A stretch of DNA of 64,000 bases from a bacterium. GTDB taxonomy: Bacteria > SAR324 > JACQKK01. Within the stretch, counting starts at the first letter, position 1, and each line of letters begins with the position of its first letter. A program made the translations under genes and the position numbers. The stretch covers positions 93,709 through 157,708 of the forward strand of contig DATFMP010000054.1 in NCBI GenBank assembly GCA_035266845.1, in the 5' to 3' direction. The notes under the pieces are model-generated. The model was not told the origin of the DNA and did not search any database. It saw only the letters and a list, made by a program, of their open reading frames with translations. Of this stretch, positions 6,260-50,211 are shown one piece after another.

Positions 6260-6997
6260 TCAATACATGCCACCGTTCACGTGTACGGTCGTGCCGTTGA
6301 TATAGGCCGCGTCATCGCTGGCCAGAAACCGCACCACCTTGGCGATTTCCTCCACGGTGCCCATGCGGCCCAGCGGCACCTGATTCAGAATGGCTTGTTT
6401 CTGCTCCTCGCTCAAGTCGCGCGTCATGTCCGTGTCGATGAAGCCGGGCGCCACGGCATTGCAGGTGATGGTGCGGCTGCCCAGTTCCTTGGCGATCGAC
6501 TTGGTGAAGCCCACCACGGCGGATTTGGAACTGGCGTAGTTGACCTGCCCCGGATTGCCCGTGAAGCCCACCACCGACGTGAGGTTGATGATGCGGCCCC
6601 GGCGCGCCCGCACCATCGTGCGGATCACGGCCCGCGTGACATAGAACATGCCGTCCAGGTTGACCGCCATCACCTCGCGCCAGTCCTCCGGTGTCATGCG
6701 CATGATGAGGGTGTCCTTCGTCACCCCGGCATTGTTCACCAGGATGTCGATGGTCGAGAGCTGCTCGAGGCCCTGCTTGACCAGCGCGTCCACCTGCTCC
6801 GGATCGGAGATGTCCGCCTGCACCGCCACGCAGCGCCGCCCCAGCGCCTCAATTTCCGCCTTGGTGGCGTCCGCGAGGGGCTTGCTGCGGTTGGTGAAGA
6901 GGATGTCGGCGCCGGCAGCGGCCAACTCCAGGGCGATACCCTTGCCGATGCCGCGTCCCGCCCCGGTGATCAGGGCGACTCGTCCTTGCAGGTTCAC
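6260..6997 (-). CDS. fabG: 3-oxoacyl-[ACP] reductase
   Basis: TGAGRGIGKG Rossmann motif, NNAG, YxxxK. Classic FabG length and position. Confidence 0.92.
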   Translation of the reverse strand: MNLQGRVALITGAGRGIGKGIALELAAAGADILFTNRSKPLADATKAEIEALGRRCVAVQADISDPEQVDALVKQGLEQLSTIDILVNNAGVTKDTLIMRMTPEDWREVMAVNLDGMFYVTRAVIRTMVRARRGRIINLTSVVGFTGNPGQVNYASSKSAVVGFTKSIAKELGSRTITCNAVAPGFIDTDMTRDLSEEQKQAILNQVPLGRMGTVEEIAKVVRFLASDDAAYINGTTVHVNGGMY

Positions 6998-7081
6998 AGG
7001 TCGCTCGTTCCTCCTTCTTGGTGGCGCCGTGCGAGAGCGATACGCACGGGGCGCGGTCCCGTTGTTCCGATGCGGTGAGAG

Positions 7082-8014
7082 TCAGGCGCCCAGGGCGGCC
7101 AGCGTGGCCTGCAGCGAGGCTTCATCCTCCACGTTGCTGACGGGTGTCTCCTTGGCGATGCGGCGCATCATGCCACTCAGCACCTTGCCGTGGCCCAGTT
7201 CCACAAAGCGCGTGACGCCCCCGCCGATCATCTTGCGGATGCCCGCGTCCCAGTGTACGGGCGAGGCGATCTGCCGCTTGAGCGAGTCGGGAAACTCCGC
7301 CGCCGCCGTGATGAACCGGTTGTCGCAGTTGGCGCAGATCGGCGCGGTGGCATCGTGGAACGCCAGCGCCTGCAGCACCTCGCCCATGCGCTCGGCCGCG
7401 GGCTCCATCAGCGCGCTGTGGAAAGGCGCGCTTACGCTGAGCAGCTTGCCCTTGGCGCGGCCCAGCACCCGCTTGACCGCTTCGGCATCGCCGGAGATGA
7501 CGATCTGGCCGGGGGTGTTGAAGTTGGCCGGCTGCACGACCTGTCCCTTGGCCTCCTCCCGGCAGAGCTGCTCGATCTCGGCAGGCTCCATGCCCAGAAC
7601 GGCCGCCATGGCGCCCACGCCCACCGGCGTGGCCTCCTGCATGAACTGTCCGCGCTTGAACACCGTGCGCACCGCGTCCGCGAAAGAGAGCGCCCCCGCC
7701 GCCACCAGGGCTGAGTATTCGCCCACACTGTGGCCGGCCAGGCTGACCGGCTTCAGCTCGACGCGCCCACCCAGCACGCGGTGGGCCACCGTGGCTACCG
7801 TGAGGATGGCGGACTGGGCATTGTAGGTGAGCGTCAGCTCTTCCTCCGGCCCCTCCAGCACCAGCTGGCGCAGGTCGAAGCCGAGAGCGTCGTTGGCCTC
7901 CTCGAACACCTGCTTGGCCTCGGGAAACGCGGCCGCAAGCGCCGCGCCCATGCCCACCTGCTGGGAGCCCTGCCCAGGAAAGATCAGTCCGATGCCCGCC
8001 ACCCGCGCCTCCAT
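7082..8014 (-). CDS. fabD: malonyl-CoA:ACP transacylase
   Basis: FPGQGSQ and GHSVGEY active-site motifs. Confidence 0.92.
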   Translation of the reverse strand: MEARVAGIGLIFPGQGSQQVGMGAALAAAFPEAKQVFEEANDALGFDLRQLVLEGPEEELTLTYNAQSAILTVATVAHRVLGGRVELKPVSLAGHSVGEYSALVAAGALSFADAVRTVFKRGQFMQEATPVGVGAMAAVLGMEPAEIEQLCREEAKGQVVQPANFNTPGQIVISGDAEAVKRVLGRAKGKLLSVSAPFHSALMEPAAERMGEVLQALAFHDATAPICANCDNRFITAAAEFPDSLKRQIASPVHWDAGIRKMIGGGVTRFVELGHGKVLSGMMRRIAKETPVSNVEDEASLQATLAALGA

Positions 8015-8060
8015 CCGTGTTGTGATTCAGGCCAAAGCCTTGTGCATTCCTGCGGCGATG

Positions 8061-9104
8061 TCAACCGGAGGCCGCGCTCCCGGCCGTGTCGGCGGAGCGA
8101 CCCGCTGCGGCGGCCTGCCGCGCGAATTCCGCACCCAGCGTCTCCACGAGCCGCCCCTGCACGCACTGCGTGGCCACCTGCACTGCGTTGAACAGCGTGC
8201 GGGCGTTGGAGGACCCGTGACACACCAGCGCCACGCCCCCCAGTCCCAACAGCAGCGAACCGCCCACCTCGCGGTAGTCCGTGCGCCGCCGCAGCTCTGC
8301 GAACACGCCGCGCATCAGCAGCGCGCCCAGCCGCGCCACAGGCGAGCGGGCAATGGATTCCTTCATGAGCAGGCGCATCTGGGTATCCGCCGCCTCGGCA
8401 GTCTTGAGTACCAGATTGCCCACGAAGCCGTCGCACACCAACACATCCGCCTTGCCGCGGAACAGGTCGCGCCCCTCCACGTTGCCCACGAACCCCGGCA
8501 CCCGCTCCGCCAGCAGCCCGTACGCGGCCCGGGTCAGCTCGTTGCCCTTGCCCGGCTCGCTGCCGTTGCTGAGCAGCGCCACGCGCGGGGCACCGATGCC
8601 AGCCACCACGCGGGCATAGACCTGGCCCATCAGCGCGAACTGCTCCAGGTAGTGCGGCTTGCAGTCCACATTGGCCCCGCTGTCCAGCAGCACGCTGCTC
8701 CCGCGCCGCAGGGGCAGCGGCGTGGCGATGGCCGGACGGTCGATGCCGGGCAGCGTGCCCAGCTCGTGCTTGGCCGCAACCATCAGTGCGCCCGTATGCC
8801 CGGCGCTGATCACCGCCTGGGCCCGCCCCTGGGCCACCAGGGCACAAGCCACACGCACCGAGGCCCGCGGCTTTTCGCGCAGCAGGGCTGTGGGGGCGTC
8901 GGCGGGGGTGAGCGCTTCGGGCGTGTGCTCGATGTGCAGGCGCGGCGGGGCGTGACCCCGGCGCCGCAACTCCGGCTCCAGCGCGGCGGCATCGCCCACC
9001 AGCACGATCTCGCAGTCGGTCTCGCGGGCAACGCGCAGGGCGGCCTCCACGGGCACGCGGGGCGAGAAGTCCCCACCCATCGCATCCATCGCGATCGTGG
9101 TCAT
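8061..9104 (-). CDS. plsX: phosphate acyltransferase PlsX
   Basis: 347 aa. AMDAMGGD...SAGHTGAL...LLSNGSE... are PlsX hallmarks. Confidence 0.9.
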   Translation of the reverse strand: MTTIAMDAMGGDFSPRVPVEAALRVARETDCEIVLVGDAAALEPELRRRGHAPPRLHIEHTPEALTPADAPTALLREKPRASVRVACALVAQGRAQAVISAGHTGALMVAAKHELGTLPGIDRPAIATPLPLRRGSSVLLDSGANVDCKPHYLEQFALMGQVYARVVAGIGAPRVALLSNGSEPGKGNELTRAAYGLLAERVPGFVGNVEGRDLFRGKADVLVCDGFVGNLVLKTAEAADTQMRLLMKESIARSPVARLGALLMRGVFAELRRRTDYREVGGSLLLGLGGVALVCHGSSNARTLFNAVQVATQCVQGRLVETLGAEFARQAAAAGRSADTAGSAASG

Positions 9105-11651: not shown

Positions 11652-12653
11652 TCAAGGCACAGAGGGCGTGAAGTTGAAGCGCTTCGCCGTCACGGGGTGG
11701 AAGGGCAGCAGCTTGCCGAATACGGCGTTCATGCTGCTGTTCACCTGGGCAAAAAGGGGATCGAAGAGGGCCATGGCATTGCCGCTGCCGTACACCGTAT
11801 CCAGCACCTTTAGCACCGTCGGCACCGGCAGATCACGCCGCCCCACCAGGATCTGGTACACGGCCGGCAATTCCAGGTTGCGCGTCTGGTTGGGATAGGA
11901 GCCGCGCGGCAGCTTGCCCGTGGTCAGCCACGGATCGGCCAGCTTCAGCTCATCCATGATCTTGCCGTCGATGGGCAGCAACTGTAGGCGGGGATCCCGG
12001 TTCATGGCGGCCGTCAGCTCCCGCAGGGGCGTGGGCGAGGTGAACAGCAGAATCGGTCCGTTGGCATAGTCCAGTGAATCCACCAGGATGTCGTCCGGCA
12101 CGCGCTGCAGTAGGGCCGTCTGCGCCGCGTCGTCATGGGTCAGCTCGCCCAGGGCTTGGTACGCAAACTCTGCGTTGTGCAGCGTCCACGTTTCCGCGGA
12201 TAGAGGCAGCTTCAGCTCCTGCACGGCTGGGTTGCGGGTCACCGCCTGCAGCAGGTTGGGCCAGAGCACGGCGATGGCCGTCAGGCGCGGGTACTCGCTG
12301 AGGTGCGCGGCCGCCGTGGCCGCGTCCACCACGGTGAGGTCGCCACGCCCTCGATTCACCGCCCGCAGGCGCGCCTGGGCGCCGTCCATCGCGCGCACGG
12401 CCAACAGGTCGTCCGCGGGGTCGTAGCGGTTGCGCCATAGCTGCGCCAGATCGGTCAGGAAGCGCCACGAGCCGTCGCCCGCCTCGGCGGCCAGGGCCGT
12501 GCGCACGGGCGCGGCCAGGGCGCGCGGTGCCGCCGCTGTCATGAGCGGCGCTGCCAGCAACAGTGCAGCCAGCAGCACGGTGAGTGGATAGCGCAGGGCG
12601 AAGCGGCTGAGGGAATGGGCGTGGCGCTGTGCGATCACGGCGATCCTGTGCAA
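11652..12653 (-). CDS. exported periplasmic-binding-like protein (possibly TAXI/TRAP-type solute-binding family)
   Basis: Signal peptide, 333 aa, protein-like composition. Family assignment is tentative. Confidence 0.45.
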   Translation of the reverse strand: MHRIAVIAQRHAHSLSRFALRYPLTVLLAALLLAAPLMTAAAPRALAAPVRTALAAEAGDGSWRFLTDLAQLWRNRYDPADDLLAVRAMDGAQARLRAVNRGRGDLTVVDAATAAAHLSEYPRLTAIAVLWPNLLQAVTRNPAVQELKLPLSAETWTLHNAEFAYQALGELTHDDAAQTALLQRVPDDILVDSLDYANGPILLFTSPTPLRELTAAMNRDPRLQLLPIDGKIMDELKLADPWLTTGKLPRGSYPNQTRNLELPAVYQILVGRRDLPVPTVLKVLDTVYGSGNAMALFDPLFAQVNSSMNAVFGKLLPFHPVTAKRFNFTPSVP

Positions 12654-14352: not shown

Positions 14353-16251
14353 TCAGGTCTCCTCGTCCAGCAGGCGGATCAGGTCACGCAGACGCTGGGC
14401 CGGGGTGGCACGCACCATGTAGCGCCCCTGGGTCATGCCCTGAAAGGCGGAGCGGTAGAAGTCCAACTGGGCCTGCTGCGCGGCAAAGGCCGTGATGCGC
14501 GAGCGCAGTTCGCCCACGTCCTCGAACAGGTGCAGGGCGAAGCCGGGCGAGATGGCGCGCCGCACCTGATCCACCACGGGAAACTCCGCCCAGCTCAGCA
14601 TGTGCACCAGCGTATTGCCGCGGGCATCGAAGAGCAGGCGGCTCAGCGAGGCGCGGTCCATGCCGTAGACCAGATGCCGCAGGGGCAGCAGCGTGTCGAT
14701 CAGGTACTGGCAGCGGCTGAAGTAGTATTCCGTATACAGCGCCACCCACAGCGCCAGCCGGCCCTGCGGCAGCTTGTGGGCACGGTGCAGGCCGATCAGC
14801 GTGCGCGTGAGCTGCAGGTGCCGGCGCTGGGCCTCGCCCTCGGCCAGCTCGTAGCGCTCCGTGCGCTCGCGCAACATCACGGGCATGGCCTCCAGCCAGC
14901 GCTGGCGGAAGGGGCCGTCCAGCGCCTCGGCCACAGAGGCCAGCACCGGCTCCGCCAGCCCCGCCTGGCCCATTACGCGGATGAGATCCTGCAGTTCGCG
15001 GTCGGAGAGAAAGCCCGCCATGCGGGCCCAGGGCACCCGGCCCTGGGCCCAGCCCGTGGCGCGAAAGATGGCCTGCCGATTGGGCAGGCCCTGAGCCGGC
15101 AGCGCCATGCCCTTGGCCGTGATGCGCATCAGCCAGTGCCACGTGTGGGGCGGGATGGCCAGCACCCACTCCAGGTAGCCCTCGTCCATGCGCGCCGTCT
15201 GCCGCGCGATCAGCCCACCGCCCTCCAGGCGCTTGGTGACGGCATCGATGGCGTCGCTGGGAATCTTGCGCGCGGCCAGCAGGCGCCAGCGCATGGGGGT
15301 CTCCGCGAAAGCCTCCCACAGCTTGGCCGAATCGGCGAAGAGGGCGCGGAACATATCGCCCAGGAAGCGCTCCTGCCCGGAGCGGCTGAGCCGGATCAGT
15401 TGTCCGGCCGCTGCGGCCGGCAGCACCACGAACAGCTCCAGCGCCTTCTCGTCACCCAGTTGCAGGCGCGCCACCGTGGGCGGCCCGTCCTTGCCCACCA
15501 GTGCGGCCATGGCCTCGGCATCCACGACCTGGCACTGCAGGCCCGCGGGGCGCTGGAAGAGGCGGTTGCCGATCTCGCCATCGTTGCGCCCGAAGAACGT
15601 CTGCAGCCATCCGGCCAGCATAAGCTCCGAGATCTGCGCGCCCTGCTCCAGCCCCGGGGGCGGCGGGGGCGGCTCCCACTGCGGGCGGCACAGATAGGCC
15701 CCCTCGTTGATGGAGAACAGCGCGCGCTGCGTGGCCTTCTGGGTGGCCCGCTCCTCGATCAGGTCGCGACCCGCCGCCGTCACCAGCAGGCGCAGCACAA
15801 AGCCGTTGCCGCGGGGCACGGTAAACACGCCCGTGGCCATCGTGTAGCTCACCTCGCCACCCAGGTGGTGCGCGGTGAACCCCGTCACGTTGCGGGAGAC
15901 CTGCAAGCCGGTCAAGCGGTTGCGGCGCTTGCCGATGAAGTTGAAGGGCTCGGCCGCCGTGCTGACGACCTGCTCCAGCAGCTTGTGGAACGGCATGCGC
16001 TCGCCCGCCAAGCGCGTCAGCCCCGCCACGTCGTGCTCGGTCAGCGCGAAGACGAACGGCACCTCGGCCTTGGCCGCCAATTGCGGCAGAAGCACGGTCT
16101 CCACATCGCTCCAGCGCAGCTTGAGCGTGTTGGTGGTGGAGAGCTCCACCCGCTCCAGTGTCACCGCGCTGCCCGTCAGGCTCGTGAGCGACGTGCCCAC
16201 GGCCATCATCACCGACTGCGCGAAGAAGCCGAAGTAGGTCTCGATGTTCAT
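14353..16251 (-). CDS. large hypothetical protein (~630 aa), two-domain with a PPPPPPG linker
   Basis: Start taken at MNIETYF (alternative upstream start at 16308). The opposite-strand 624-aa ORF is R/Q/H/A-rich (shadow). No family recognised. Confidence 0.55.
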   Translation of the reverse strand: MNIETYFGFFAQSVMMAVGTSLTSLTGSAVTLERVELSTTNTLKLRWSDVETVLLPQLAAKAEVPFVFALTEHDVAGLTRLAGERMPFHKLLEQVVSTAAEPFNFIGKRRNRLTGLQVSRNVTGFTAHHLGGEVSYTMATGVFTVPRGNGFVLRLLVTAAGRDLIEERATQKATQRALFSINEGAYLCRPQWEPPPPPPGLEQGAQISELMLAGWLQTFFGRNDGEIGNRLFQRPAGLQCQVVDAEAMAALVGKDGPPTVARLQLGDEKALELFVVLPAAAAGQLIRLSRSGQERFLGDMFRALFADSAKLWEAFAETPMRWRLLAARKIPSDAIDAVTKRLEGGGLIARQTARMDEGYLEWVLAIPPHTWHWLMRITAKGMALPAQGLPNRQAIFRATGWAQGRVPWARMAGFLSDRELQDLIRVMGQAGLAEPVLASVAEALDGPFRQRWLEAMPVMLRERTERYELAEGEAQRRHLQLTRTLIGLHRAHKLPQGRLALWVALYTEYYFSRCQYLIDTLLPLRHLVYGMDRASLSRLLFDARGNTLVHMLSWAEFPVVDQVRRAISPGFALHLFEDVGELRSRITAFAAQQAQLDFYRSAFQGMTQGRYMVRATPAQRLRDLIRLLDEET

Positions 16252-16406
16252 CCGCCGCGCCGCGGCGGGGGACGAACGAAGGCGGGTAGGCGGGGCGAGC
16301 GTGCTCACGGATCAGGTATATCACGCCCTCTCCGTGCGACGAAGCCGCGGACTCGCCATGTCGGCATGGCGGGCCCGTGGGACACGGCTCTAACGGTGCG
16401 CTGACC

Positions 16407-23774: not shown

Positions 23775-24704
23775 CTAGAGAAGAGCCTTGGGCGTGTCGT
23801 CACGGTTGCCCCACTCCGCCCAGGAGCCATCATAGCCACGCACGCGCGGCAGGCCCAGCCATTTCAGCGTGAAGTAGGTGTGCGCGGCCCGCACCAGCAC
23901 CTGGCAGTAGACCACCGCCTCGCGGTCGGGCATCACCCCAAGCTGCTCGTAAGTCTCGCGCAGTTCCGCCGCGGACCGAAACGTGCCGTCCGGCCGCAGG
24001 TTGCGCTTCCACTCCATGGAGACGGCGCCGGGAATGTGACCCCCGTGCTTCGCGTAGCGCGTCGCACCGATGTACTCCAGCGTAGAGCGGGCATCGACCA
24101 GCACCACGGCGGGATCGTGCAGGTGCGCGCGCACCCAGGCCAGGTCCGCGATGGCCGCCGACTTTGGGCGGGGCGTGAAAGCGGCGTATGGTGCGCTGAA
24201 CGCCTCGCGGGAAACGGACCTGCCGCCGCGCAGCCAGGCCCGCCAACCGCCATCCAGCAGACGCCCGTGACCCTGGCCCAGGTAGTCCAACACCCAGAAC
24301 AGTCGCGCCGCGTAGAGGTCGCCCGCATCGTCGTACGCCACGACGGTGGTGCCCGCACCGATGCCGGCCCGACTCAGGGCTTCAGCCACCTGCGCCACAG
24401 GCGGCAGCATCCCCGCGACGCCCTTCACGGTGGCGAACAGTTCCTCGGCCGGCAGGTTCACCGCGCCTGGGATGTGCCCCTGGGCGTAAGCCGCGGCATC
24501 CCGGACATCCACGATGCGAAGGCCCGGCTGCGTGGCCTCGCGCAGGTGCGCAGCCAGCCACGGTGCCCGCACCAGCAGTTCGGGCCGCGGATGCCAGGAC
24601 GCAGCGCCAACAGCCTCTGCCCCGCCGAGCACCAGCAGCAGGGGCAGCGCAACGGCGATACCCCGAAGCGCGAACCGGGGCCTGGCAATCGAGCATAGAC
24701 GCAT
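23775..24704 (-). CDS. periplasmic tandem-rhodanese sulfurtransferase (thiosulfate/3-mercaptopyruvate sulfurtransferase-like)
   Basis: Start at MRLCSIARP (signal peptide). Two rhodanese domains. Active-site Cys in VVYCQVLVRAAH. Confidence 0.75.
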   Translation of the reverse strand: MRLCSIARPRFALRGIAVALPLLLVLGGAEAVGAASWHPRPELLVRAPWLAAHLREATQPGLRIVDVRDAAAYAQGHIPGAVNLPAEELFATVKGVAGMLPPVAQVAEALSRAGIGAGTTVVAYDDAGDLYAARLFWVLDYLGQGHGRLLDGGWRAWLRGGRSVSREAFSAPYAAFTPRPKSAAIADLAWVRAHLHDPAVVLVDARSTLEYIGATRYAKHGGHIPGAVSMEWKRNLRPDGTFRSAAELRETYEQLGVMPDREAVVYCQVLVRAAHTYFTLKWLGLPRVRGYDGSWAEWGNRDDTPKALL

Positions 24705-24810
24705 GCGTGTACCCCCGAAAGTCATGTGTGGCTGGAGTGAGGCTCGAAACGGACGGGCGCCCACCCTGCCCACCACACCGCGTCGACATATATGCTCGGG
24801 CATTCGTGGC

Positions 24811-24850
24811 AAAAAAAAACGGTGCAGCCCGTCTGGGCTGCACCGTTTGT
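24811..24850 (-). terminator. rho-independent terminator (11-bp GC stem, 4-nt loop, U9 tail on the minus strand; weaker T tail on plus)
   Basis: cggtgcagccc-gtct-gggctgcaccg is flanked by A9 on the plus strand, which is T9 on minus. It sits 30 nt downstream of the CDS ending at 24880. Confidence 0.85.
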
Positions 24851-24879
24851 CCTGAGTGCGAGGCGTCGGTGCTGGCGGT

Positions 24880-26730
24880 CTAGTCGGCCAGCTGCTCGAA
24901 CGTCTGGCTGAGGTCATCCCGCACCGTGGAGCGACGCCGCGAGAATTCGGCGAACGCGGTGTCGTGGAAGCCCCGGGAAACGGAGTACAGAAACTCGTTC
25001 AGCACGTTGGCCATCGCCATCATGGTGGTCTTCTTGCGCTTGACCGAGGTGATATCCAGCTCCAGCAGGGCGCCGGGCAGGATGTGGTACGGATTCACCA
25101 GCCCCTCGAACTCCTCGAACTTTTGCTCGAGGAAGTGCAAGCGGCTTTCCACGATGGTGCGATCGACCGGGTGCTGATTGCCGAAGATCTGCTGCAGCCG
25201 GTGCTTCGTGGCCGAGACGCGCTTGCGGAGCTCTTCCACGATGTACAGGTTGGTCTTGTTCATCTCCTCCACTTCGGTCGAGCGGGGCGGGACGAACACG
25301 ACCTCGTTCCACAGCTTCGGCGGCTCTTCCTCCACCTCTTCTTCGACGGCGCGGGAGAACCAACCGCCGGCCTTGGGCTTATCCTTCTTGAGGTATTGGC
25401 GCGCAATGTCCTCGTAGTCCTGGATGCCCTTGGCGGCCTTGTTGTCGTTGTACAGGACGTCCACCACGTTCACGACCTTCATGATCTCGGTATGAAGCTC
25501 GTCGAACTGGGCATCGTAGGCATTGCGCATACCCCGCACCTGCTCGTCATCGTAGTACGACAGGCGGATGCCGTAGCGCTCGTCGGGCAGCGCATTGACG
25601 TCCGTGTCCTCGTACTCGCGGATGACGCACTGGCGCGCGTTCTTGTAGTTCTCGATGTGCTGGTAGCCCATCTTGGAGGTGTCCAGCACCGAGGTCAGGT
25701 TGTTCACCGCCGTGTTGAAGCCGCGGTTCCGGATGTTCTCGTTGTCGATGATGCGCTTAATGTTCTCACGCACATTGAGCGGATCGAACTCGTCCGGATC
25801 GATCTCGGCGTGCAGGCCCTCGATGCGGTCCATGAAGCGCTTGGCGATGAACTGGTAACGCCGCGACTGTTCGTTGTTCACGTCGTCGTCGACGTAGTTG
25901 TCCAGGGCCTTGATCTTCTCGAACATCACCTCGGTGTCCGACAGCTCTTCCTTGCCTTCATCGATCAGGGTGTTGTTCAGCTCGGTGATTTCCTGCTCGA
26001 TCAGGGCGTGGATGTGCTTGCTGATGATGTCCTTGATGATCGTCGCCAGCGAGGTCTGGTAGTGATAGATGGGGCTGATCAACTCCGAATCCAGGATGTT
26101 GATCGCCAACTTCACATCCATCACCGTCTTGGGCTTGTAAAAGTTGTTCTTGAACGAGCACTTGGCGATCGCATAGGCGTTCTCGCCACGCACGAACGCG
26201 CCCACGTCCGACTTTTGACGCAGCAGCGCGTTGGTCTCGTTCTCCAACTCGTACATCCCACGCTGCACGTGCCCTTGCAGGTGCCCGTAGATGTTGACGA
26301 TGGACTTCTCAATCTCGCCCGTATTGAACTTGTCGATCCCGCCGATTTTGTCCAGGATCTCGGCGATCTCCCGCGGTGTATAGCGGTTGAGCGCTCGATA
26401 CTCCTCCTTGTCCACCAGATCACGTACCTTCTTGCCCAGTTCATCCTCCATAGTGGTGATGTACCGGTTGTACATGTTCTGGAAGTTCTGGTTGAAGTAG
26501 TTGTGCAGCTTCGACTTGATGGAGCCCATCACGTCGAGCTTTTCCAACACTTCAGGCGGGAGCTTCGCGTGGATATGGTTCAGGACCTTATCCACTTCCT
26601 CGTCGATGAGGAGCTTGGACTCTTCGTATTCGTTCCTGTTGTCACGATTGAGGCTGTTCCGCGACCCCACCGCACTCGGCTTTTCCGGGTGGATGACGTT
26701 GGGTCCTCGGGTCATGCTGTCTCGAGCCAT
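24880..26730 (-). CDS. hypothetical hydrophilic protein, K/N/Y/I/E/D-rich (616 aa), no recognised domain
   Basis: Long ORF with AGGAG RBS 8 nt upstream of the ATG, TTGACA box upstream and a strong terminator downstream. No P-loop and no signal peptide. Amino-acid composition is atypical for this genome but codons are GC3-rich. Confidence 0.8.
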   Translation of the reverse strand: MARDSMTRGPNVIHPEKPSAVGSRNSLNRDNRNEYEESKLLIDEEVDKVLNHIHAKLPPEVLEKLDVMGSIKSKLHNYFNQNFQNMYNRYITTMEDELGKKVRDLVDKEEYRALNRYTPREIAEILDKIGGIDKFNTGEIEKSIVNIYGHLQGHVQRGMYELENETNALLRQKSDVGAFVRGENAYAIAKCSFKNNFYKPKTVMDVKLAINILDSELISPIYHYQTSLATIIKDIISKHIHALIEQEITELNNTLIDEGKEELSDTEVMFEKIKALDNYVDDDVNNEQSRRYQFIAKRFMDRIEGLHAEIDPDEFDPLNVRENIKRIIDNENIRNRGFNTAVNNLTSVLDTSKMGYQHIENYKNARQCVIREYEDTDVNALPDERYGIRLSYYDDEQVRGMRNAYDAQFDELHTEIMKVVNVVDVLYNDNKAAKGIQDYEDIARQYLKKDKPKAGGWFSRAVEEEVEEEPPKLWNEVVFVPPRSTEVEEMNKTNLYIVEELRKRVSATKHRLQQIFGNQHPVDRTIVESRLHFLEQKFEEFEGLVNPYHILPGALLELDITSVKRKKTTMMAMANVLNEFLYSVSRGFHDTAFAEFSRRRSTVRDDLSQTFEQLAD

Positions 26731-26833
26731 AATCTCGCTCCTCTTGTTTCCGTCTTACCGGTAGTCTTCAAGCACAACAGGGACGTGGTAACAGACCAGA
26801 TTCCCCACAAACCAAAGGGACGGGAAAGGTTTT

Positions 26834-26862
26834 TGCCCCTCTTTCTTCTGCAATTTCGCCCG
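26834..26862 (-). promoter_or_regulatory. candidate promoter: consensus -35 TTGACA (26862..26857), weak -10, ~130-nt lower-GC leader
   Basis: TTGACA read directly. The -10 is poor (GAAGAA/AAGAAA). The leader 26731-26860 is ~50% GC versus ~70% for the window. Confidence 0.3.
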
Positions 26863-27069
26863 AATTGTCAAACGAAATCGCGGCCGGGCCGCGCTGCCGG
26901 GCCGTCGCCCGGCCCCGCGCAGGCACCAGACACCCGCCGCCCCGCCGCACGGGCCACGCCGGGAGTCCACGCACCAAAGCCGTGCCGGGCGGCGCAATAG
27001 GATCCAGGAGCCCTGGCCGATGCCGGACGAACGGCCTGGGGGCGTCGGGTTCCGCAGGCGTGCGCCCAG

Positions 27070-27858
27070 TCACTCACCGGTCGGCCCCTTAACGGCGTAG
27101 AAGACCCGCGGGTTGTCCCACTTCAGGGTCACGGTACCAGGCACGCCCGTGATGATCAGCTCGAAGGGGTGCGAGCCCACCGACACACCCAGCCGCCCTT
27201 TGGAGAGCTTGGGGAAGTCCACCTGGTAGGCCTGAGACCAGCGGTCGAGCCCCCGGAAGTACTTGTTGATGTAAAGAAAGGTGCGGCTCTCCGGCCGGAT
27301 GCGCTGGATGCGCAGCGGGGATTCCAACTGGCCCTCGTCGTCGCGCAGAAACAGCCGCCAGGGAGCATTCGCCTTGTCCAACTGCGAGGGTTCGTTGGTG
27401 CCCTCATAGGTGAACAGGAGGATCGAGATCTCAGTCTCGAAGGCCTGCTCCTGCTGCGCCTGGAGTTGCTTCACGTCCGCATCGGAGAGCAGGAACTGCT
27501 TGCGCAGCATGTCCACATACAGCCGCCGGTAGGTGCGGTCCTGCACGATCGCATCCACTACCAGCGCCGGGCGGAAGTCCTCGTAGAAGTTGCCGCTGCG
27601 GTAGGTATCCCGGAAGTAGTCCGCCGTCGCGGCGTCCCGGTAGTGCAGCAGCGTGAAGGGACCCTGGGGCGCATCGCGCCGACGCGCCGTGGAGCAGGCG
27701 GCAAGCGCCAGCACCAGCAATGCCGACAGCAGCAGCCGACCGGCCAGGGCAGTGCCCGCACGACCGGGCAGGGTGGGCACCGGACGCGGGACAGGGGCGC
27801 TGGCCGCGGCCCGTAGGGGGCCGTGCAGCGGGGCGCGATGGCGGGCTCGTGTTGTCAT
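27070..27858 (-). CDS. hypothetical lipoprotein
   Basis: Start at MTTRARHR. Lipobox LALAAC. No recognised domain. Confidence 0.55.
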   Translation of the reverse strand: MTTRARHRAPLHGPLRAAASAPVPRPVPTLPGRAGTALAGRLLLSALLVLALAACSTARRRDAPQGPFTLLHYRDAATADYFRDTYRSGNFYEDFRPALVVDAIVQDRTYRRLYVDMLRKQFLLSDADVKQLQAQQEQAFETEISILLFTYEGTNEPSQLDKANAPWRLFLRDDEGQLESPLRIQRIRPESRTFLYINKYFRGLDRWSQAYQVDFPKLSKGRLGVSVGSHPFELIITGVPGTVTLKWDNPRVFYAVKGPTGE

Positions 27859-30663: not shown

Positions 30664-31704
30664 ATGGCGACGACCAAGAAGAAGGCTCAGCCCAAGCCGA
30701 AGGCAAAAAACACGGTATCCCGATCGAAATCGGCGGGAACCTCATCGGCCTCTCGTGCCTCCAAAGCGTCGAAGCCGACGCGGACGGCAACGGCGTCGAA
30801 GGCCACCAAGGCCTCGAAAGCCAAAGCGCCGAAGGCGAAGGCCTCTCCGGCCAAGGCGGCAAAGACGACCGCCAAGGCTCCGAAGGCCACGAAACCGGCC
30901 AAACCGACGAAGAGCGCGGCATCGTCTCGAACAACCCGGGCCGCAGCCGCGTCCACGGCAAAGTCATCGCGAGCGTCGAAACCGGCCAAGGCCGCCGGCG
31001 CTGCACGTGCCAAACCCGCGCCGAAACCGGCCAAGGCCGCCGGCGCATCCCAGGCCAGAGGAGCGGCAAAGACGTTGAAAGCGACAGGAGGATCGAAGTC
31101 ATCCAAGGTGGCAAGCACCAAGGCGAGCAAGGCCAAGCCCGCACCCAAGACGGCCGCGAAAGCGCCCAAGGTAGCGAAGGCCAAACCGGCCCCGAAGGCC
31201 GCCGCCCCCAAGGCCGCGGCCAAGGTACCGCCACCGCCGGTGGTGCCCGAGATGGGGGAGTCTCTCACCGAGAAGCTTCCGCACATCGACGACAAGACGT
31301 TGGGCAAGATCATTGCCAAGCTGCAGGAGATGCGCGAGGAGAGCCTGTCCATCGTCAATCAGAACATGCAGACGGACCTGAAGCCGCGCGAGGAAGCCTC
31401 CGACGTGGGGGACGACCTGGATCAGGCCAGCAACGAGCGCGACCGGGAGTTCAACCTCATCATGCACCAGCGCCATCTGCGCCGGTTGCAGCAGATCAAC
31501 GATGCGTTCGAGCGCATCGATGACGGCAGCTACGGCCTGTGCGAGGGGACGGACGAGCCCATCAATCCCAGGCGGCTGCTGATCATGCCGCTGGCCCGCT
31601 TCAGCCTGGAGTACCAGGAGCAGCAGGAGAAGATGCTGGGCCGCACCGTGGAAACGGAGCAGTTCCTGGAGAGCGGCGAGGACTCCTTCAGCGCCGAAGA
31701 GTGA
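30664..31704 (+). CDS. DksA/TraR-family regulator with N-terminal AKP-rich histone-H1-like domain
   Basis: C-terminal 150 aa carries the DksA coiled-coil tip (DVGDDLDQASNE) and a degenerate zinc finger (LCEGTDEPINPRRLLIMPLARFSLEY; only 1 of 4 Cys). The N-terminal ~200 aa are KPAKA/AAKA low-complexity repeats. Confidence 0.75.
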   Translation: MATTKKKAQPKPKAKNTVSRSKSAGTSSASRASKASKPTRTATASKATKASKAKAPKAKASPAKAAKTTAKAPKATKPAKPTKSAASSRTTRAAAASTAKSSRASKPAKAAGAARAKPAPKPAKAAGASQARGAAKTLKATGGSKSSKVASTKASKAKPAPKTAAKAPKVAKAKPAPKAAAPKAAAKVPPPPVVPEMGESLTEKLPHIDDKTLGKIIAKLQEMREESLSIVNQNMQTDLKPREEASDVGDDLDQASNERDREFNLIMHQRHLRRLQQINDAFERIDDGSYGLCEGTDEPINPRRLLIMPLARFSLEYQEQQEKMLGRTVETEQFLESGEDSFSAEE

Positions 31705-32826: not shown

Positions 32827-33130
32827 GGAGCGTCCTCGGGAATCGCGGGGGGTCGGAGCGCGGGGGGCCCGCCCGGACCCGCCGTCAGCGCCCTTCGGAT
32901 AGCACACTAGCCGCCCGCGCCGCAATGCGGCAAGCGCAGGGCCGATCCGTCCGCGGCACCCCCTGTGGGTTGATGTAGCTTGACTTTTGGCCCGGTTTTC
33001 CGAAGATAGGCAGACTTCCTGCAGAGCCGCCGCGGCAGACGACGCCCGGCCATGCCCGCCCCGGCGGGCTGCGCCGCGTGCGAGCCGGTGGATGCAGGCT
33101 GGCAGGCACCAACGCCAACAAGGACCGCAC

Positions 33131-34258
33131 ATGGAGTTCAAGATTCAACCCGTCCCGGCAACGGAGCGGCGTCCGAAACCTACGGACGAGAACAAGTTAG
33201 GCTTCGGCAAGATCTACAGCGACCACATGTTTACGGCCACCTGGAGTCCTAACGGCGGGTGGGCCCAAGGCACGGTGAAGAAGTATGGTGCGCTCGACCT
33301 GGCTCCTGCGGCGTTGGTACTCCATTACGGGCAGACGATCTTCGAGGGCCTCAAGGCCTACCGGAACCAGCACGGCACGATCAACCTGTTCCGGCCGCTG
33401 AAGAACCTGGAGCGCTTCAACCGCTCCGCGGCGCGGCTGGACCTGCCGCAGGTGCCCGAGGAACTGTTCATGGGTGCGATCGAGGCGCTGCTGGAACTGG
33501 ATCACGAGTGGATTCCGCACTCCCACGGCACCTCGCTCTACATCCGGCCCACCATGATCGGCGCCGAGCCCTACATCGGGCTCAAGTCGGCCTCCGAGGT
33601 GCTGCTGTTCTTCATCACCGGCCCGGTGGGTGCGTACTATCCCGAGGGCTTCAACCCGGTGAAGATCACCGTCTGCGAGGCGTACTCGCGCGCGGGGCCG
33701 GGCGGCCTGGGCTCGGCCAAGACGGCCGCCAACTATGCGGCGAGCCTGCTGGCCGAAAAGGAAGCCATCAAGCGCGGCTTCACGCAGGTGCTCTGGCTGG
33801 ATGCGGCCGAGCGCAAGTACGTGGAGGAAGTCGGCTCGATGAACATCCTGTTCAAGATCAAGGGCAAGGTGGTCTCCCCTCCGCCGGGCGAGACGATCCT
33901 GGCGGGCATCACGCGCGATTCCGCGCTGCAACTGCTACGCAGTTGGGACGTGCCCGTGGAGGAGTACCGCATCACCATCGACGAGGTGCTGCAAGCCCAT
34001 GCCGACGGCACGCTGGAGGAGGTCTTCGGCGCGGGTACCGCGGCTGTCATCTCCCCGGTGGGCCTGCTGGAGTACAAGGGCCACAACTACGAGGTCGCCG
34101 ATGGCCAGACCGGCCCCGTGGCCCGCAAGCTGTTCGATGAGCTGATGGGCATCCAATATGGCCTGCGTCCGGATCCCTTCCAGTGGATTCACGAGGTCGT
34201 GCCCACCACGCTCAAAGCCAACGTAGCCTCCCAACCGGTAGCCGCGACCCGCTCGTAA
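33131..34258 (+). CDS. ilvE: branched-chain amino acid aminotransferase (fold type IV)
   Basis: MEFKIQP...GFGKIYSDHMF...QTIFEGLKAYR...EVFGAGTAAVISPV. Confidence 0.88.
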   Translation: MEFKIQPVPATERRPKPTDENKLGFGKIYSDHMFTATWSPNGGWAQGTVKKYGALDLAPAALVLHYGQTIFEGLKAYRNQHGTINLFRPLKNLERFNRSAARLDLPQVPEELFMGAIEALLELDHEWIPHSHGTSLYIRPTMIGAEPYIGLKSASEVLLFFITGPVGAYYPEGFNPVKITVCEAYSRAGPGGLGSAKTAANYAASLLAEKEAIKRGFTQVLWLDAAERKYVEEVGSMNILFKIKGKVVSPPPGETILAGITRDSALQLLRSWDVPVEEYRITIDEVLQAHADGTLEEVFGAGTAAVISPVGLLEYKGHNYEVADGQTGPVARKLFDELMGIQYGLRPDPFQWIHEVVPTTLKANVASQPVAATRS

Positions 34259-34426: not shown

Positions 34427-35563
34427 ATGACGTTGCAGATGCAGATCGCGCCCGTCCCGCCCGAGCAGCGGCAGGCCAAACCACAGGATCCCACCCGACT
34501 GGGCTTCGGCCGGGTGTATACCGACCACATGTTCACGATGCGCTGGAGCGCCGAGCACGGCTGGCACGACGCGCAACTGGGGCCCTTCGAGCCGCTGGCG
34601 CTTTCCCCCGCGGCCATGGTGCTGCACTATGCGCAGACGATCTTCGAGGGCCTCAAGGCCTATCGCACGCCGCAGGGTACCGTGAACCTGTTCCGCCCGG
34701 CGGACAACGCCGAGCGCTTCGACCGCTCGGCCGAGCGCCTGGCCCTGCCACTGCTGCCGCCCGGGGCCTTCGTGGCGGCGGTGGAGGCGCTCGTGGCGCT
34801 GGAGCGGGACTGGGTGCCGCAGGCCCCGGGCACCTCGCTGTACGTCCGCCCGACCCTGATCGCCACCGAGCCCCACCTGGGCGTGCGACCCGCCGCCGAG
34901 GCCCTGTTCTTCGTCATCGCGGGCCCGGTGGGGCCGTACTACCCGGAGGGCTTCGCGCCCGTGCGCATCACAGTGGCCGAACACTACGTGCGCGCCGCGC
35001 CCGGCGGGCTGGGCGCAGCAAAGACGGGTGCCAATTACGCCGCCAGCCTGCTGGCCGCCGAGGAGGCGAAGGCGGAGGGTTACACGCAGGTGCTGTGGCT
35101 CGATGCCATCGAACGCCGCTACGTGGAGGAGGTCGGCGCCATGAACATCGCGTTTAAGATCGGCGGCACCGTGATCGCTCCGCCGGCGAGCGGCACTACC
35201 CTGGCCGGCATCACCATCCGCTCCGCGCTGCACCTGCTGCGGGGCTGGGACGTGTCGGTGGAGGAACGCCGCATCACCATCGACGAGGTGCTGCAGGCCC
35301 ATGCCGACGGCACGCTGGAGGAGGTCTTCGGTGCGGGCACGGCCGCGGTGATCTCGCCCGTGGGCCTGCTGGCCTACCAGGGCCGCCAATACGAGATCGC
35401 GGGGGGCGGCACGGGCCCGCTGGCACAGCGGCTGTTCGATGAGCTGACCGGCATCCAGTATGGCCAGCGCCCCGACCCCGATGGGTGGATCCGTGCAGTG
35501 CCGCCGGCGCCGCCAACACCCCGGAGGCAGGCCCCACTGCCGCTGCCGGCGGCCGGGCGCTGA
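34427..35563 (+). CDS. ilvE: branched-chain amino acid aminotransferase, tandem paralog
   Basis: Collinear with the upstream copy (~60% aa identity by eye). Shares a ~66-nt near-identical DNA stretch with it. Confidence 0.85.
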   Translation: MTLQMQIAPVPPEQRQAKPQDPTRLGFGRVYTDHMFTMRWSAEHGWHDAQLGPFEPLALSPAAMVLHYAQTIFEGLKAYRTPQGTVNLFRPADNAERFDRSAERLALPLLPPGAFVAAVEALVALERDWVPQAPGTSLYVRPTLIATEPHLGVRPAAEALFFVIAGPVGPYYPEGFAPVRITVAEHYVRAAPGGLGAAKTGANYAASLLAAEEAKAEGYTQVLWLDAIERRYVEEVGAMNIAFKIGGTVIAPPASGTTLAGITIRSALHLLRGWDVSVEERRITIDEVLQAHADGTLEEVFGAGTAAVISPVGLLAYQGRQYEIAGGGTGPLAQRLFDELTGIQYGQRPDPDGWIRAVPPAPPTPRRQAPLPLPAAGR

Positions 35564-38391: not shown

Positions 38392-38790
38392 CTATTGGCG
38401 ACGCTTCCGGATCCAGCGGATGTTGTGGTCCACGGATTTCCAGCCCTGCTTCCACAGCCGTCCCTCGCCCCAGAGGCTGTGGCCATAGGGATTGGCGGAG
38501 CGTGAGCGGCCGGCTGCGCGCGCCTTCTGACCCTCCTCACGCGCGGAAACCCGCCGCTGCCGACGAGCGTGCTCCTTCAGGCCGCCCAGTTCGTTCCACT
38601 GCAGCATCAGTTCGCGGCGCTCGCGCGGCGTAGCAGCCCGGGCCGCGCGGAGGCGCAGGGCGGCCCGGTGCTTGCGCAGGCGGCGCTTGCGGACGCCGCT
38701 GAGACGGTACATCAGCAGGCCCACCAGCGCGAACAGCAGCCAGACGACGGGCTCCCGCAGGTAGATCCACAGGCTGTCGTCCGCGGGCAC
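38392..38790 (-). CDS. hypothetical membrane-anchored protein (N-terminal TM, Arg-rich cytoplasmic tail)
   Basis: Start assigned to a GTG with a GGAG SD 7 nt upstream. The longer ORF form would initiate inside repeat copy A. Confidence 0.35.
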   Translation of the reverse strand: MPADDSLWIYLREPVVWLLFALVGLLMYRLSGVRKRRLRKHRAALRLRAARAATPRERRELMLQWNELGGLKEHARRQRRVSAREEGQKARAAGRSRSANPYGHSLWGEGRLWKQGWKSVDHNIRWIRKRRQ

Positions 38791-38911
38791 GGCAGCACTC
38801 CAATGCAGTGAACGGGATGGGCGGCCTCCGGCCGCCGGGTCTTGGAGAGCCTTCACTCCCCACGCTTCGCCTTGCAGGAATGGGGCTAGGCTCTGTTTGG
38901 GAAGTTGTTTT

Positions 38912-39092
38912 TTGAGCGGCTGGGCCACTTAGAACCACAAAGAATCCAATGTGGGGGCCGAGGGCTCCCACACCCCAACTACGGGCCTTGACCAAGGCAG
39001 GCGCAGTTCCACCCACAAATGGGGTCCAGGGAGCCTTGCTCCCTGGTGGCGGTATGGGGGCAACGCCCCCTGGCCGACAGGCTTTTCAAAAC
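38912..39092 (+). repeat. ~185-bp multi-hairpin intergenic repeat, copy A (first hairpin degenerate)
   Basis: Aligns by eye with copies at 50215-50405 (reverse) and 57335-57520. Shared core (A/G)AACCAC(A/G)AGAAATCCAA(T/C)G(T/C)GGGGGCC...GGGTCCAG(G/A)GAG...GGGGGCA(A/G).GCCCC...GCTTT. Confidence 0.75.
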
Positions 39093-47227: not shown

Positions 47228-47806
47228 TCAGTTGACGAGCACCGTCTCCTGCTCGTGCCCGCAGTGCTGACACACCGTGGCCAGCAGCTCGATCGATTTT
47301 TGGCAATTCGTGCACGGCTTGAAATCCCAGCCCGTGTGCTCCTTGGGCCGCAGGGCGGAAAGCAGCCGGTGCTCGACGGGCGCCTTGCCGACGGCGCCAG
47401 CGGCACCGGCGGCGGAACGCGTCTGCTGCAGAAGCTTGGCGCGCAGTTGCGCTGTGATGTCGTCGTAGTTGCGGTGGTACGCCTTGAATTCCTGCAGCGT
47501 GCGGTACAGCGCCACCAGCAGCACCACCGCCATGGTGCCGATCACGAGGGCCATCCAGCGAGGGGAGTAGGGATCGAGCAGCGAATACAGCGCAAAACCG
47601 AGGAGCACCAGCGTGAAGGTGAGGAAGCCCGCCAGGCTCACCTTGAAGATCTCCACGATCACGCGATGCTGATACTCGTGGAGCCGCAGGAGGCTCTGGC
47701 CCTTGCCACGCGATGCGTTCGCACCGGCGTTGGCCGTGGGTTCGCCGGGGCGGAGCGCCTTGAAGGGCGCCAGCAGTATCTCGGGAAAGGCTCTCAGCGG
47801 CTTCAT
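47228..47806 (-). CDS. hypothetical membrane protein with C-terminal zinc ribbon (CTNCQ...CQHCGH)
   Basis: Start at MKPLRAF. 2 TM helices. CxxC-x10-CxxC. 9-nt gap to queA. Confidence 0.5.
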   Translation of the reverse strand: MKPLRAFPEILLAPFKALRPGEPTANAGANASRGKGQSLLRLHEYQHRVIVEIFKVSLAGFLTFTLVLLGFALYSLLDPYSPRWMALVIGTMAVVLLVALYRTLQEFKAYHRNYDDITAQLRAKLLQQTRSAAGAAGAVGKAPVEHRLLSALRPKEHTGWDFKPCTNCQKSIELLATVCQHCGHEQETVLVN

Positions 47807-48171
47807 ATGAGGTGCGTGGCTCCGAGGATCGGTTACTCTCCGACGGACCGCCCTACGGTGCCCCCGCACCGGGCTGTCCAGCTTCCGACCGGCATTTCGG
47901 CTGGTGGATTGCGCTGCGCGCGTCCGTACCAGTTATACCCCCACGCGCACAGGTAGTGCAAGGTTGGCCCCGGCGGCCCGCGGTCCGCCAAGCCGCCGCT
48001 GGCGCGTCATCGGGCCGGGCCGGCCGATGCTCACGGGGTGCGGCCGGCAAGGCTTCCACGCTTTGAGTTTCCCCGGAGAATCCGTCAGAATCGCAGGGGG
48101 AGCCACCGCGGCGCCCCGGTCCGCGCCCGGCGGCGCGACGTCCCGCACGCACCCCGAACCCCGCCCCGACC

Positions 48172-49056: not shown

Positions 49057-50211
49057 ATGAAGGAAGACCACTACATCGGGGTGCTCGACCCGCGGATCCT
49101 GGAGTACGTCAAGTTCAGCCGCTTCCACTGGTGGGAAATCGGAGCCATCGCCGTGGTGCTGGGGGCCCTGCTCGGCTATGCCCTGCTGGCCGTAGTGCTG
49201 GATCGTCGCGCGCGTGCCCGGCGCCGCAAGCACAAGCAGCTGTCGCGGCTGGAGGCCTGGCTCGACGCCTGGCGGCTGGAGCCGGACGAGGAAGAGGCCC
49301 TGTGGGAGCTGGCCGGCCAACGCAAGCCGCTGGCCCTGTACGCGCTGCTGGCGGAGCCGCTGCGCTTCGAGCGCGCCGTGCACGAGGCACTTATCAGCGG
49401 CAAGCACCTGCCCTTCACCGAGCGCGTGCGCGATGCGCTGGGCTATCGCAGCGACAACCTGAGCTGCCCCGTCGTCTCCACACGACAGTTGATGGTGGGC
49501 GACCACCTGCGCTTTGCCGTGTGGGAAGAGGGGCGCCCGCAGCACCACTATGCCATCGTCACGGCCGTTTCCGCCGCCGGCCTGGCCGTCGAGCTGACCG
49601 AGGCGGGCTTCCGCGACGTGACGAGCGCGCGCGGGGAGACCGAACTTTTCTTTCTGCGTGGGAACGACCTGGAGGTGCGCTTCCCGCTGGCCGTCCGCAC
49701 GGCGGATGCGGAGCGCCACCGGCTGCTGCTGGCGCATCAACTGGTGCGCGGGGGGCAACGGCCGCGCAGCACGCGCCTGCCCATGCTGCGACCCATCACC
49801 TTTCGCCTGCGGGCCCAGGCCGCGGAGCTGGCCTCACCGCACGCCCTCGCCACCGGCGAACTTGCCGCCGGGCAACCGGGCGGCGCCCAGGGTCAGGAGA
49901 TGCGCGGTGCGCTGCTGGAGATGAGCGAGGGAGGCTTCTCGATGGTGACCCTCCACCCCGTGGCCGAGGGCGCGTATGTGGAGCACGCCATGCAACTGCC
50001 GCGGGGCCGCTACCTCCCCATCGTGGGGCGCGTGCTGGACTGCCGCGCATTCGCCGGCAACCGCTGGCTGGTGCGCTGCGAGCTGCGCGGGCTGACCCCC
50101 ACCCAGCGCAACACGCTGTCGCAGGTGCTGCGGCTGGAACAGGCGCGGCGCCTGCGCGCCATCCAGGCCGAGCGCCGCAAACGCCTGCGGGAATCCGGCG
50201 AGGCGCCCTAG
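49057..50211 (+). CDS. hypothetical membrane-anchored protein, possible degenerate PilZ-like domains
   Basis: N-terminal TM. Weak LEMSEGGF (DxSxGG-like) motif. Call speculative. Confidence 0.4.
   Translation: MKEDHYIGVLDPRILEYVKFSRFHWWEIGAIAVVLGALLGYALLAVVLDRRARARRRKHKQLSRLEAWLDAWRLEPDEEEALWELAGQRKPLALYALLAEPLRFERAVHEALISGKHLPFTERVRDALGYRSDNLSCPVVSTRQLMVGDHLRFAVWEEGRPQHHYAIVTAVSAAGLAVELTEAGFRDVTSARGETELFFLRGNDLEVRFPLAVRTADAERHRLLLAHQLVRGGQRPRSTRLPMLRPITFRLRAQAAELASPHALATGELAAGQPGGAQGQEMRGALLEMSEGGFSMVTLHPVAEGAYVEHAMQLPRGRYLPIVGRVLDCRAFAGNRWLVRCELRGLTPTQRNTLSQVLRLEQARRLRAIQAERRKRLRESGEAP

Follow-up and report, generated by a model that had tools for sequence, protein, structure and literature searches.

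A native cfpA gene outside the spirochaetes: a predicted cytoplasmic filament protein of a SAR324-lineage bacterium

We analyzed a 64,000-nucleotide (nt) stretch of contig DATFMP010000054.1 (assembly GCA_035266845.1; henceforth, the window), in which a minus-strand gene at 24880..26730 codes for a compositionally unusual protein of 616 amino acids (aa; 71.8 kDa, pI 5.3). Based on the list of open reading frames (ORFs) and on matches to the profiles NF040882 and PF27473, this gene is cfpA. Its product, of the short form seen in SAR324-type loci, is a full-length, collinear member of the CfpA family of cytoplasmic filament proteins and is under extreme purifying selection. The gene is native to the core chromosome of a non-spirochaete, high-GC (guanine plus cytosine) host of the SAR324 lineage. 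By analogy with the treponemal protein, we consider it likely that this is the SAR324-lineage ortholog of cfpA, whose product would polymerize without a nucleotide into thin cytoplasmic filaments beneath the membrane. Published reviews hold CfpA to be exclusive to spirochaetes, and its presence in SAR324-lineage bacteria contradicts these statements. The spirochaete-only rule is a statement on where CfpA occurs and sets no molecular criterion, and the present host is placed in the SAR324 lineage by both synteny and FtsH.

Identification of the protein as CfpA

Searches with the NCBIfam equivalog profile NF040882 (cytoplasmic filament protein CfpA) matched the protein with 916.2 bits (E = 1.1e-275) against a cutoff of 500, aligning residues 6-612 of the 616 with profile positions 2-604 of 605. 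An earlier note on this DNA, made from the letters alone, had described the protein as an orphan of unknown function without a recognizable motif, and had named a clear match to a characterized family as the result that would overturn this description; the end-to-end match to NF040882 is just such a result. Its passing guess that the protein is possibly structural was right in kind, CfpA being a cytoplasmic filament protein, and the 616-aa ORF itself is present as it had claimed: independent gene callers arrived at the identical protein, down to its boundaries, in three other public assemblies. ERZ27257098, SRR5210470 and JGI 3300026196 contain the identical protein.

The Pfam domain PF27473 (CfpA_C) is precomputed on the identical protein in these three assemblies and on every homolog listed. 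A scan of Pfam-A gave only sub-threshold noise (IFT20 and dynamin-like helical families), because PF27473 is newer than the scanned release. This lack of a significant match in the scanned Pfam-A and a sequence search of the PDB that returned zero relatives of the window CfpA are the observations that would suit a true orphan, or a novel protein without a known family. Set against the equivalog match at 916 bits, the presence of PF27473 on the identical protein and the thousands of homologs, the probability of this is negligible.

More than 2900 CfpA homologs were scored, all of them with PF27473 and many already named CfpA in their records, the named ones coming from SAR324, Deltaproteobacteria, Lambdaproteobacteria and Spirochaetia records. 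The family assignment is therefore not new, in that databases already name such proteins from metagenome-assembled genomes (MAGs) CfpA. Relatives are encoded by the genomes of at least 559 species representatives, and among 1.84 billion proteins, matches at the 50%-identity level came to only 218 representatives. An ungapped alignment of 606 aa pairs the window CfpA with that of Spirochaeta africana, a cultured species, at 56% identity and 78% similarity, and the mean column identity is 55-68% in alignments spanning the SAR324-type and spirochaete proteins. In comparisons of cfpA with four orthologs, synonymous-only codon differences exceed amino acid changes by about 2:1. Further, three tryptic peptides have been published for the Treponema pallidum protein TP_0748 (PMC6248270): two of them align to conserved positions of the family, with 9/14 and 10/14 identities that lie above all 300 shuffles, and the match of the third, in the variable C-terminus, lacks significance.

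Several of the homologs from MAG records at NCBI and JGI (P0038, P0042, P0086, P0291, P0305, P0308, P0315, P0318 and P0072) carry the names 'cytochrome C oxidase subunit II' or 'TPR repeat protein'; Pfam domains of either kind are absent from the window protein. These names look like propagated misannotations, which could mislead metaproteomic and metatranscriptomic studies of SAR324. Another homolog, P0129 (KAK3596126.1), is annotated as an 841-aa 'hypothetical protein' in the genome assembly of a freshwater mussel, Potamilus streckersoni; it shares 48% identity with residues 4-605 of the window CfpA and probably stems from bacterial contamination or from a symbiont.

Amino acid composition and codon usage

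The composition of CfpA departs sharply from that of the other proteins in the window. N, K, Y, E, I and D are elevated 1.6-3.3-fold over background, the fraction of FYMINK residues is 0.325 vs 0.168 in the background, and that of GARP residues is 0.19 vs 0.36. The GC content dips locally to 0.57-0.59 at cfpA, about 10 points down. By codon position (GC1/GC2/GC3), cfpA has values of 0.57/0.29/0.88; about 50 other likely genes of the window have a GC2 of 0.39-0.56 and a GC3 of 0.78-0.95. At K/N/Y/E/D/F/H/Q/I, the fraction of GC-ending codons is 0.83, equal to the background value of 0.83. These values bear out the earlier description of an aberrant composition written in host-adapted codons.

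The homologs come from loci of 34-70% GC, and in all of them the FYMINK fraction lies at 0.31-0.36 and the GARP fraction at 0.17-0.20. This constancy across host GC, together with the strong constraint on the family, shows that the earlier note had correctly attributed the composition to selection on the protein rather than to a recent low-GC import; the background-like GC3 and codons and the synteny in 12 genomes agree with this. Thus, the K/N/Y/I/E/D-rich composition is an intrinsic, frozen trait of the CfpA family, with host GC pressure visible at synonymous sites only, and the compositional anomaly is explained by a known cytoskeletal protein and not by a new class of genes.

The suggestion that the gene is probably highly expressed found no support, the codon bias being no greater than background and the leader structure ordinary. 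By analogy, high expression in this host is plausible: CfpA is readily detected in T. pallidum proteomics, and transcript rankings differ between studies.

Host lineage and evolutionary status

The genomes with the closest CfpA proteins (76-92% identity) are MAGs from several independent studies, labelled SAR324 cluster, Candidatus Lambdaproteobacteria or Deltaproteobacteria. Across 12 SAR324-type loci (L001-L012, GC 0.43-0.70) cfpA lies in a syntenic block, with a shared order of a divergent H+-pyrophosphatase gene, a small lipoprotein gene, cfpA and the genes for a rhodanese, an MBL hydrolase and a TPP enzyme. Independently of this synteny, the host is placed in the SAR324 lineage by FtsH, which is encoded elsewhere in the window: its named relatives (61-81% identical) are all from SAR324, Deltaproteobacteria or Lambdaproteobacteria, none is from a spirochaete, and some share a large contig with cfpA. 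The rest of the window is made up of core housekeeping genes (the fab/plsX cluster, fmt, era, ftsH, tsaBDE, queA, rlmN and psd). Some spirochaete cfpA loci are as high as 69% GC, so one might propose that the window comes from a high-GC spirochaete and that the host is unremarkable. Yet the flanking genes are syntenic with those of SAR324, Lambdaproteobacteria and Deltaproteobacteria MAGs, spirochaetes are absent from the named FtsH relatives, and the protein falls within the short-form CfpA clade, which together make a spirochaete host extremely unlikely.

In distance trees (crude, midpoint-rooted neighbor-joining trees of the best 80 loci only), the SAR324-type CfpA proteins (about 615 aa) make up one clade; a second clade holds the Spirochaetota proteins, which are about 656-688 aa long and carry a C-terminal tail. 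The identity between the two clades is 0.53-0.62; within clades, among the sampled sequences, it is 0.72-0.92 for the SAR324-type and 0.61-1.00 for the spirochaete proteins. We regard the gene as native because it is syntenic in 12 genomes, follows the background in its codon usage and belongs to a clade apart from that of the Spirochaetota. Recent acquisition of the gene by horizontal transfer, from a low-GC donor or a spirochaete, could be argued from the local GC drop of about 10 points and from the fact that the family is best known from spirochaetes. It is nevertheless very unlikely, given that the GC3 of 0.88 and the codon choice equal the background, that the gene order is the same in 12 related genomes spanning 43-70% GC, that the SAR324-type copies form a deep clade of their own, separated by the between-clade identities given above, and that mobile-element genes were not found nearby. 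On these sequence grounds, recent transfer is excluded, and the data fit either ancient transfer or vertical descent.

The neighborhood of cfpA differs between the two clades. In 55 spirochaete loci (within L018-L080), the next gene, about 73 nt downstream of cfpA, codes for a protein of about 340 aa with the precomputed Pfam domain PF27497 ('TP_0747_N'), and a PPDK-type gene (ppdK) comes after it. This cassette of cfpA, a TP_0747-like gene and a PPDK gene is also found on two non-spirochaete contigs, L016 (6265-7296) and L081 (739-8445); it is a contextual trait that lies outside the curated definition of the CfpA family. The window lineage represents a short, stand-alone form of CfpA.

Proteins of the TP_0747 family, for which no function has been described, are candidate partners of CfpA, and the literature searched made no mention of TP_0747. 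L081 further carries two cfpA paralogs 3.9 kb apart, at 739-2661 and 6583-8445, which code for proteins of 640 and 620 aa that are 55% identical. The 640-aa paralog (P0321), which stands beside the cassette, falls in neither the spirochaete nor the SAR324-type clade; hence, there are at least three deep CfpA lineages.

Predicted structure

Two AlphaFold2 models of the window CfpA were built from alignments of 44 and 78 sequences. Their confidence is moderate, with predicted local distance difference test (pLDDT) values of 66 and 69 and predicted template modeling (pTM) scores of 0.45-0.46, and their topologies agree. The divergent-member profile used to deepen the alignment mostly recovered the main clade again, and the second model was only slightly better. 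Both models comprise helices of 30-47 residues alternating with β elements at residues 186-213, 358-393 and 553-563, where the local pLDDT reaches 90.

These models bear on the description of CfpA in reviews as an intermediate filament (IF)-like protein with a high predicted content of coiled coil (PMC6599971, PMC2776988), a description that the earlier note had approached with its own guess of a coiled coil. On this account CfpA, the window copy included, would assemble through a heptad-repeat rod, and the several 30-47-residue helices of the models, together with heptad-like periodicity in two segments only (396-449 and 554-590), are compatible with it. By a crude, home-made heptad score with tropomyosin as the control, however, heptad coverage at 7/8 positions is 15% for CfpA (8% when shuffled) vs 97% for tropomyosin, and at 8/8 positions it is 0% vs 54%. 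The protein contains 19 Pro and 25 Gly, and the β elements occur at the same places in both models. Moreover, it bears invariant KCSFK, MGYQ, LPDERY and NPYH-QPG motifs typical of globular folds, it retains a cross-phylum identity of 56-60% unlike that of fast-evolving coiled-coil rods, and the fold searches yielded neither an IF nor a coiled-coil rod. Thus, the low heptad coverage, the reproducible β elements and the Pro and Gly residues leave the coiled-coil or IF-like description unsupported for the window CfpA, and we consider assembly through a heptad rod improbable.

Other known folds fared no better. The best Foldseek match of the model in the PDB had an E value of 0.44, and none of the actin, tubulin, ParA, bactofilin or IF-rod folds was recovered in fold searches of the models. 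The only structural resemblance is to the KA1 (kinase-associated-1) fold: an α+β module of some 95 residues, or about 15% of the protein, matches it at 6-7% identity, and many unrelated small α+β folds (SRPBCC/START, DcrB and AdoMetDC) score nearly as well; the resemblance is only a structural lead, not homology. KA1 domains bind acidic membrane lipids. A lipid-binding module of this kind would suit a filament beneath the membrane, again only as a lead. An internal triplication of a helix/β-hairpin/helix module, which the model had suggested, found no support, as hhalign probabilities between slices of the alignment were all <5%.

The two ends of the protein combine high conservation with predicted disorder: residues 10-26 (PNVIHPEKPSAVGSRNS) and 586-611 (with SRRRSTVR) belong to the most highly conserved blocks (0.80-0.91) and have pLDDT values of 33-59. 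This pattern is expected if the terminal segments become ordered only in subunit-subunit contacts, as we suggest from the models. Bringing these features together, we put forward as a tentative possibility, short of an even chance, that CfpA, rather than being an IF-like coiled coil, represents a distinct and structurally uncharacterized class of α/β cytoskeletal polymers with conserved docking termini, held at about 55-60% identity across two unrelated phyla, and that SAR324-lineage bacteria build treponeme-like cytoplasmic filaments outside the periplasmic-flagella setting of spirochaetes.

Proposed function

The cytoplasmic filaments of Treponema are built from CfpA as their only subunit; they lie beneath the membrane, parallel to the flagella (PMC3398590, PMC13398306), and form a ribbon, an assembly known from Treponema only. 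Their loss results in chromosome condensation and failed cell separation, and the cfpA mutant of T. denticola shows chromosome condensation and filamentation and has lost pathogenicity (PMC3398590). By extension, the window CfpA would polymerize without a nucleotide cofactor into thin cytoplasmic filaments, which would run under the inner membrane along the cell and might have a nucleoid- or division-related role in the SAR324 host. The scan of the protein found neither a Walker A motif, in agreement with the earlier report of no P-loop, nor a hydrophobic segment (grand average of hydropathy -0.68); we count the lack of a motif for nucleoside triphosphate binding in favor of nucleotide-independent assembly. 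Within such a filament, the termini (10-26 and 586-611) may make the subunit-subunit contacts and the KA1-like α+β module could face the membrane.

Several points weigh against this proposal. The window CfpA ends at the conserved core, without the C-terminal tail (about 45-65 aa) of the spirochaete proteins, and a hidden Markov model of the partner detected no TP_0747-family gene in the window, in L001-L015 or in L017. The literature searched contained no paper linking CfpA to SAR324. Filament formation in this lineage is a prediction, and so is expression of cfpA in this host. Finally, because the confidence of the models is only moderate (pLDDT 66/69, pTM 0.45-0.46), the statements on the termini and the KA1-like module are weak.

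The missing tail and the missing TP_0747/ppdK neighborhood are also what would be expected if this CfpA-family protein had acquired a different, non-filament role in SAR324, such as that of a soluble scaffold or a regulator. In the same vein, another conserved neighbor, a lipoprotein gene, stands next to cfpA instead, and the host is not known to share the cell architecture of spirochaetes. What speaks against a non-filament role is the gap-free identity of 56-60% to spirochaete CfpA, with nearly all invariant positions kept and both termini included, and a purifying selection as strong as that in spirochaetes, judging by the within-clade identities (0.72-0.92 vs 0.61-1.00); conservation this uniform would be expected of a polymer with many contact surfaces. 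We therefore hold a non-filament role to be unlikely, if somewhat less so than a heptad-rod assembly, and favor the filament-forming ortholog.

Anatomy of the cfpA locus

On the minus strand, the gene is preceded by a Shine-Dalgarno sequence, AGGAG, at 26738..26742 (-12..-8, 7 nt before the ATG), which the earlier note had given at -8; its GGAG core is invariant across 13 aligned SAR324-type loci. Further upstream, a -35-like TTGACA within GT-TTGACA-AT lies at 26866..26871 (minus strand), 141 nt before the ATG. The box itself is thus real, and the position first reported for it (26862..26857) was wrong by 9 nt, the true site being 26871..26866 (-141). The bare hexamer is not above chance in the window (5 occurrences vs 12.8 expected), and what lends the box weight is not its frequency but the conservation of the hexamer and its flanks at 10 orthologous loci, eight of which have it between -133 and -211. 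An alignment of the 10 loci anchored on the box revealed a composite motif consisting of (A/T-rich)-G-TTGACA-AT, a GAAAT element in the spacer and a CA(A/T)nnA hexamer exactly 17 nt downstream; the composite is unique in the window, with 0 occurrences expected by chance. In the window, the hexamer of this alignment corresponds to GAAGAA at 26843..26848 (minus strand), 17 nt past the -35 box, a putative non-canonical -10 element. Read as a phylogenetic footprint, the alignment points to a promoter whose -35 is canonical and whose -10 is not. A sigma-70 scan found no minus-strand promoter and a canonical -10 is absent after the TTGACA; a non-canonical -10 would explain why the scan missed the promoter.

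Starting from this putative -10, the 5' leader would span 26728..26836 on the minus strand (about 105 nt, GC 0.50). In the alignment of SAR324-type loci only the invariant GGAG and one CCTGTTGTG patch stand out from an otherwise unconserved sequence. The idea of a structured leader, or one resembling a riboswitch, found no support, there being no match in Rfam, a folding z-score of +0.78 relative to shuffles and little conservation of sequence. The CCTGTTGTG patch, at about 26775..26783 (minus strand), is common to the leaders of the four closest loci (the window, L001, L002 and L003) and could be a regulatory site or a mere reflection of recent common ancestry.

The 339-nt intergenic region between cfpA and the lipoprotein gene upstream holds, in the direction of transcription, a hairpin and then the TTGACA box. 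This GC-rich hairpin (CGCGGCCCGGCCGCG, 26879..26893, minus strand), which lies directly upstream of the box, is terminator-like with a weak T-tract and may insulate cfpA from the upstream gene. At the other end, an intrinsic terminator spans 24811..24848 (minus strand), with an 11-bp GC-rich stem (14 bp with an A-T extension), the loop AGAC and T9; the stem CGGTGCAGCCC/GGGCTGCACCG lies at 24845..24820 and T9 at 24819..24811. Both the terminator with its 11-bp stem and T9 and the stand-alone nature of the gene had been noted earlier and stand, cfpA being flanked by a conserved promoter-like box and a terminator that belong to it; on this arrangement, the gene looks monocistronic.

The lipoprotein gene directly upstream (27070..27858, minus strand) codes for a 262-aa protein with the lipobox L-A-A-C-S and without a Pfam family. 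Members of this family occur immediately upstream of cfpA in nine SAR324-type loci (33-71% identity) and in 0 spirochaete loci; they form an uncharacterized, clade-specific family whose tie to cfpA is positional only. Downstream of the cfpA terminator, a minus-strand rhodanese gene starts at 24704 and codes for a 309-aa protein with a signal-peptide-like N-terminus. The mechanical ORF for this gene (380 aa, 23775..24917, minus strand) extends over the terminator of cfpA and into the 3' end of that gene; independent gene calls and homolog coverage point to the 309-aa version from 24704.

Other genes in the window

Elsewhere in the window, five sizeable ORFs with host-like GC3 have no Pfam match at E <= 1e-5; they lie at 11652..12653, 14353..16308, 38392..38928 and 47228..47869 on the minus strand and at 49057..50211 on the plus strand, and one of them codes for 651 aa. 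A 346-aa ORF at 30664..31704 (plus strand) has DksA/TraR zinc-finger domains at residues 220-316 only, and its homologs from related loci cover 36-45% of it. Its true start is probably well downstream, or it may carry a lineage-specific N-terminal extension. Finally, tandem paralogs of a class-IV aminotransferase are encoded on the plus strand at 32987..34258 and 34427..35563; in related loci, one copy matches both.

Implications and comparison with known systems

What is new against the literature is that a native, strongly constrained CfpA exists outside spirochaetes and that the coiled-coil description does not fit it. A non-spirochaete CfpA offers a route to the function of the filaments that is independent of periplasmic flagella, and if CfpA does prove to be an α/β polymer that forms filaments in SAR324-lineage bacteria, a core role in scaffolding of the nucleoid or of division would be separable from the motility architecture of spirochaetes. 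As an ultra-conserved cytoskeletal family with no solved relative, CfpA is a worthwhile structural target.

The closest comparison is with the CfpA proteins of Treponema (TP_0748/tpn83 of T. pallidum, and those of T. denticola and T. phagedenis) and of Spirochaeta africana, which belong to the same NF040882/PF27473 family and share with the window CfpA the N-terminal PEKPSAVGSRNS and C-terminal SRRRST motifs. In contrast to these, the window protein lacks the tail with its basic PKKKGR-type patch and is about 45-65 aa shorter, comes from a SAR324-lineage host, falls in a separate deep clade and has no TP_0747-like gene and ppdK downstream. The IF-like proteins crescentin, FilP, Scc and Ccrp, with which the literature groups CfpA, resemble it in being presumed nucleotide-independent cytoskeletal polymers. 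Unlike them, the window CfpA has no extended heptad rod and a predicted mixed α/β topology, and CfpA is highly conserved across phyla, whereas reviews stress the low conservation of IF-like proteins. CfpA differs from bactofilin in that the β-helical DUF583 domain is not matched in Pfam, the CfpA models being mainly helical. From the actin/MreB, tubulin/FtsZ and ParA/MinD families, the window CfpA is set apart by having neither their nucleotide motifs (Walker A, the tubulin G-box or the actin phosphate motifs) nor a matching fold.

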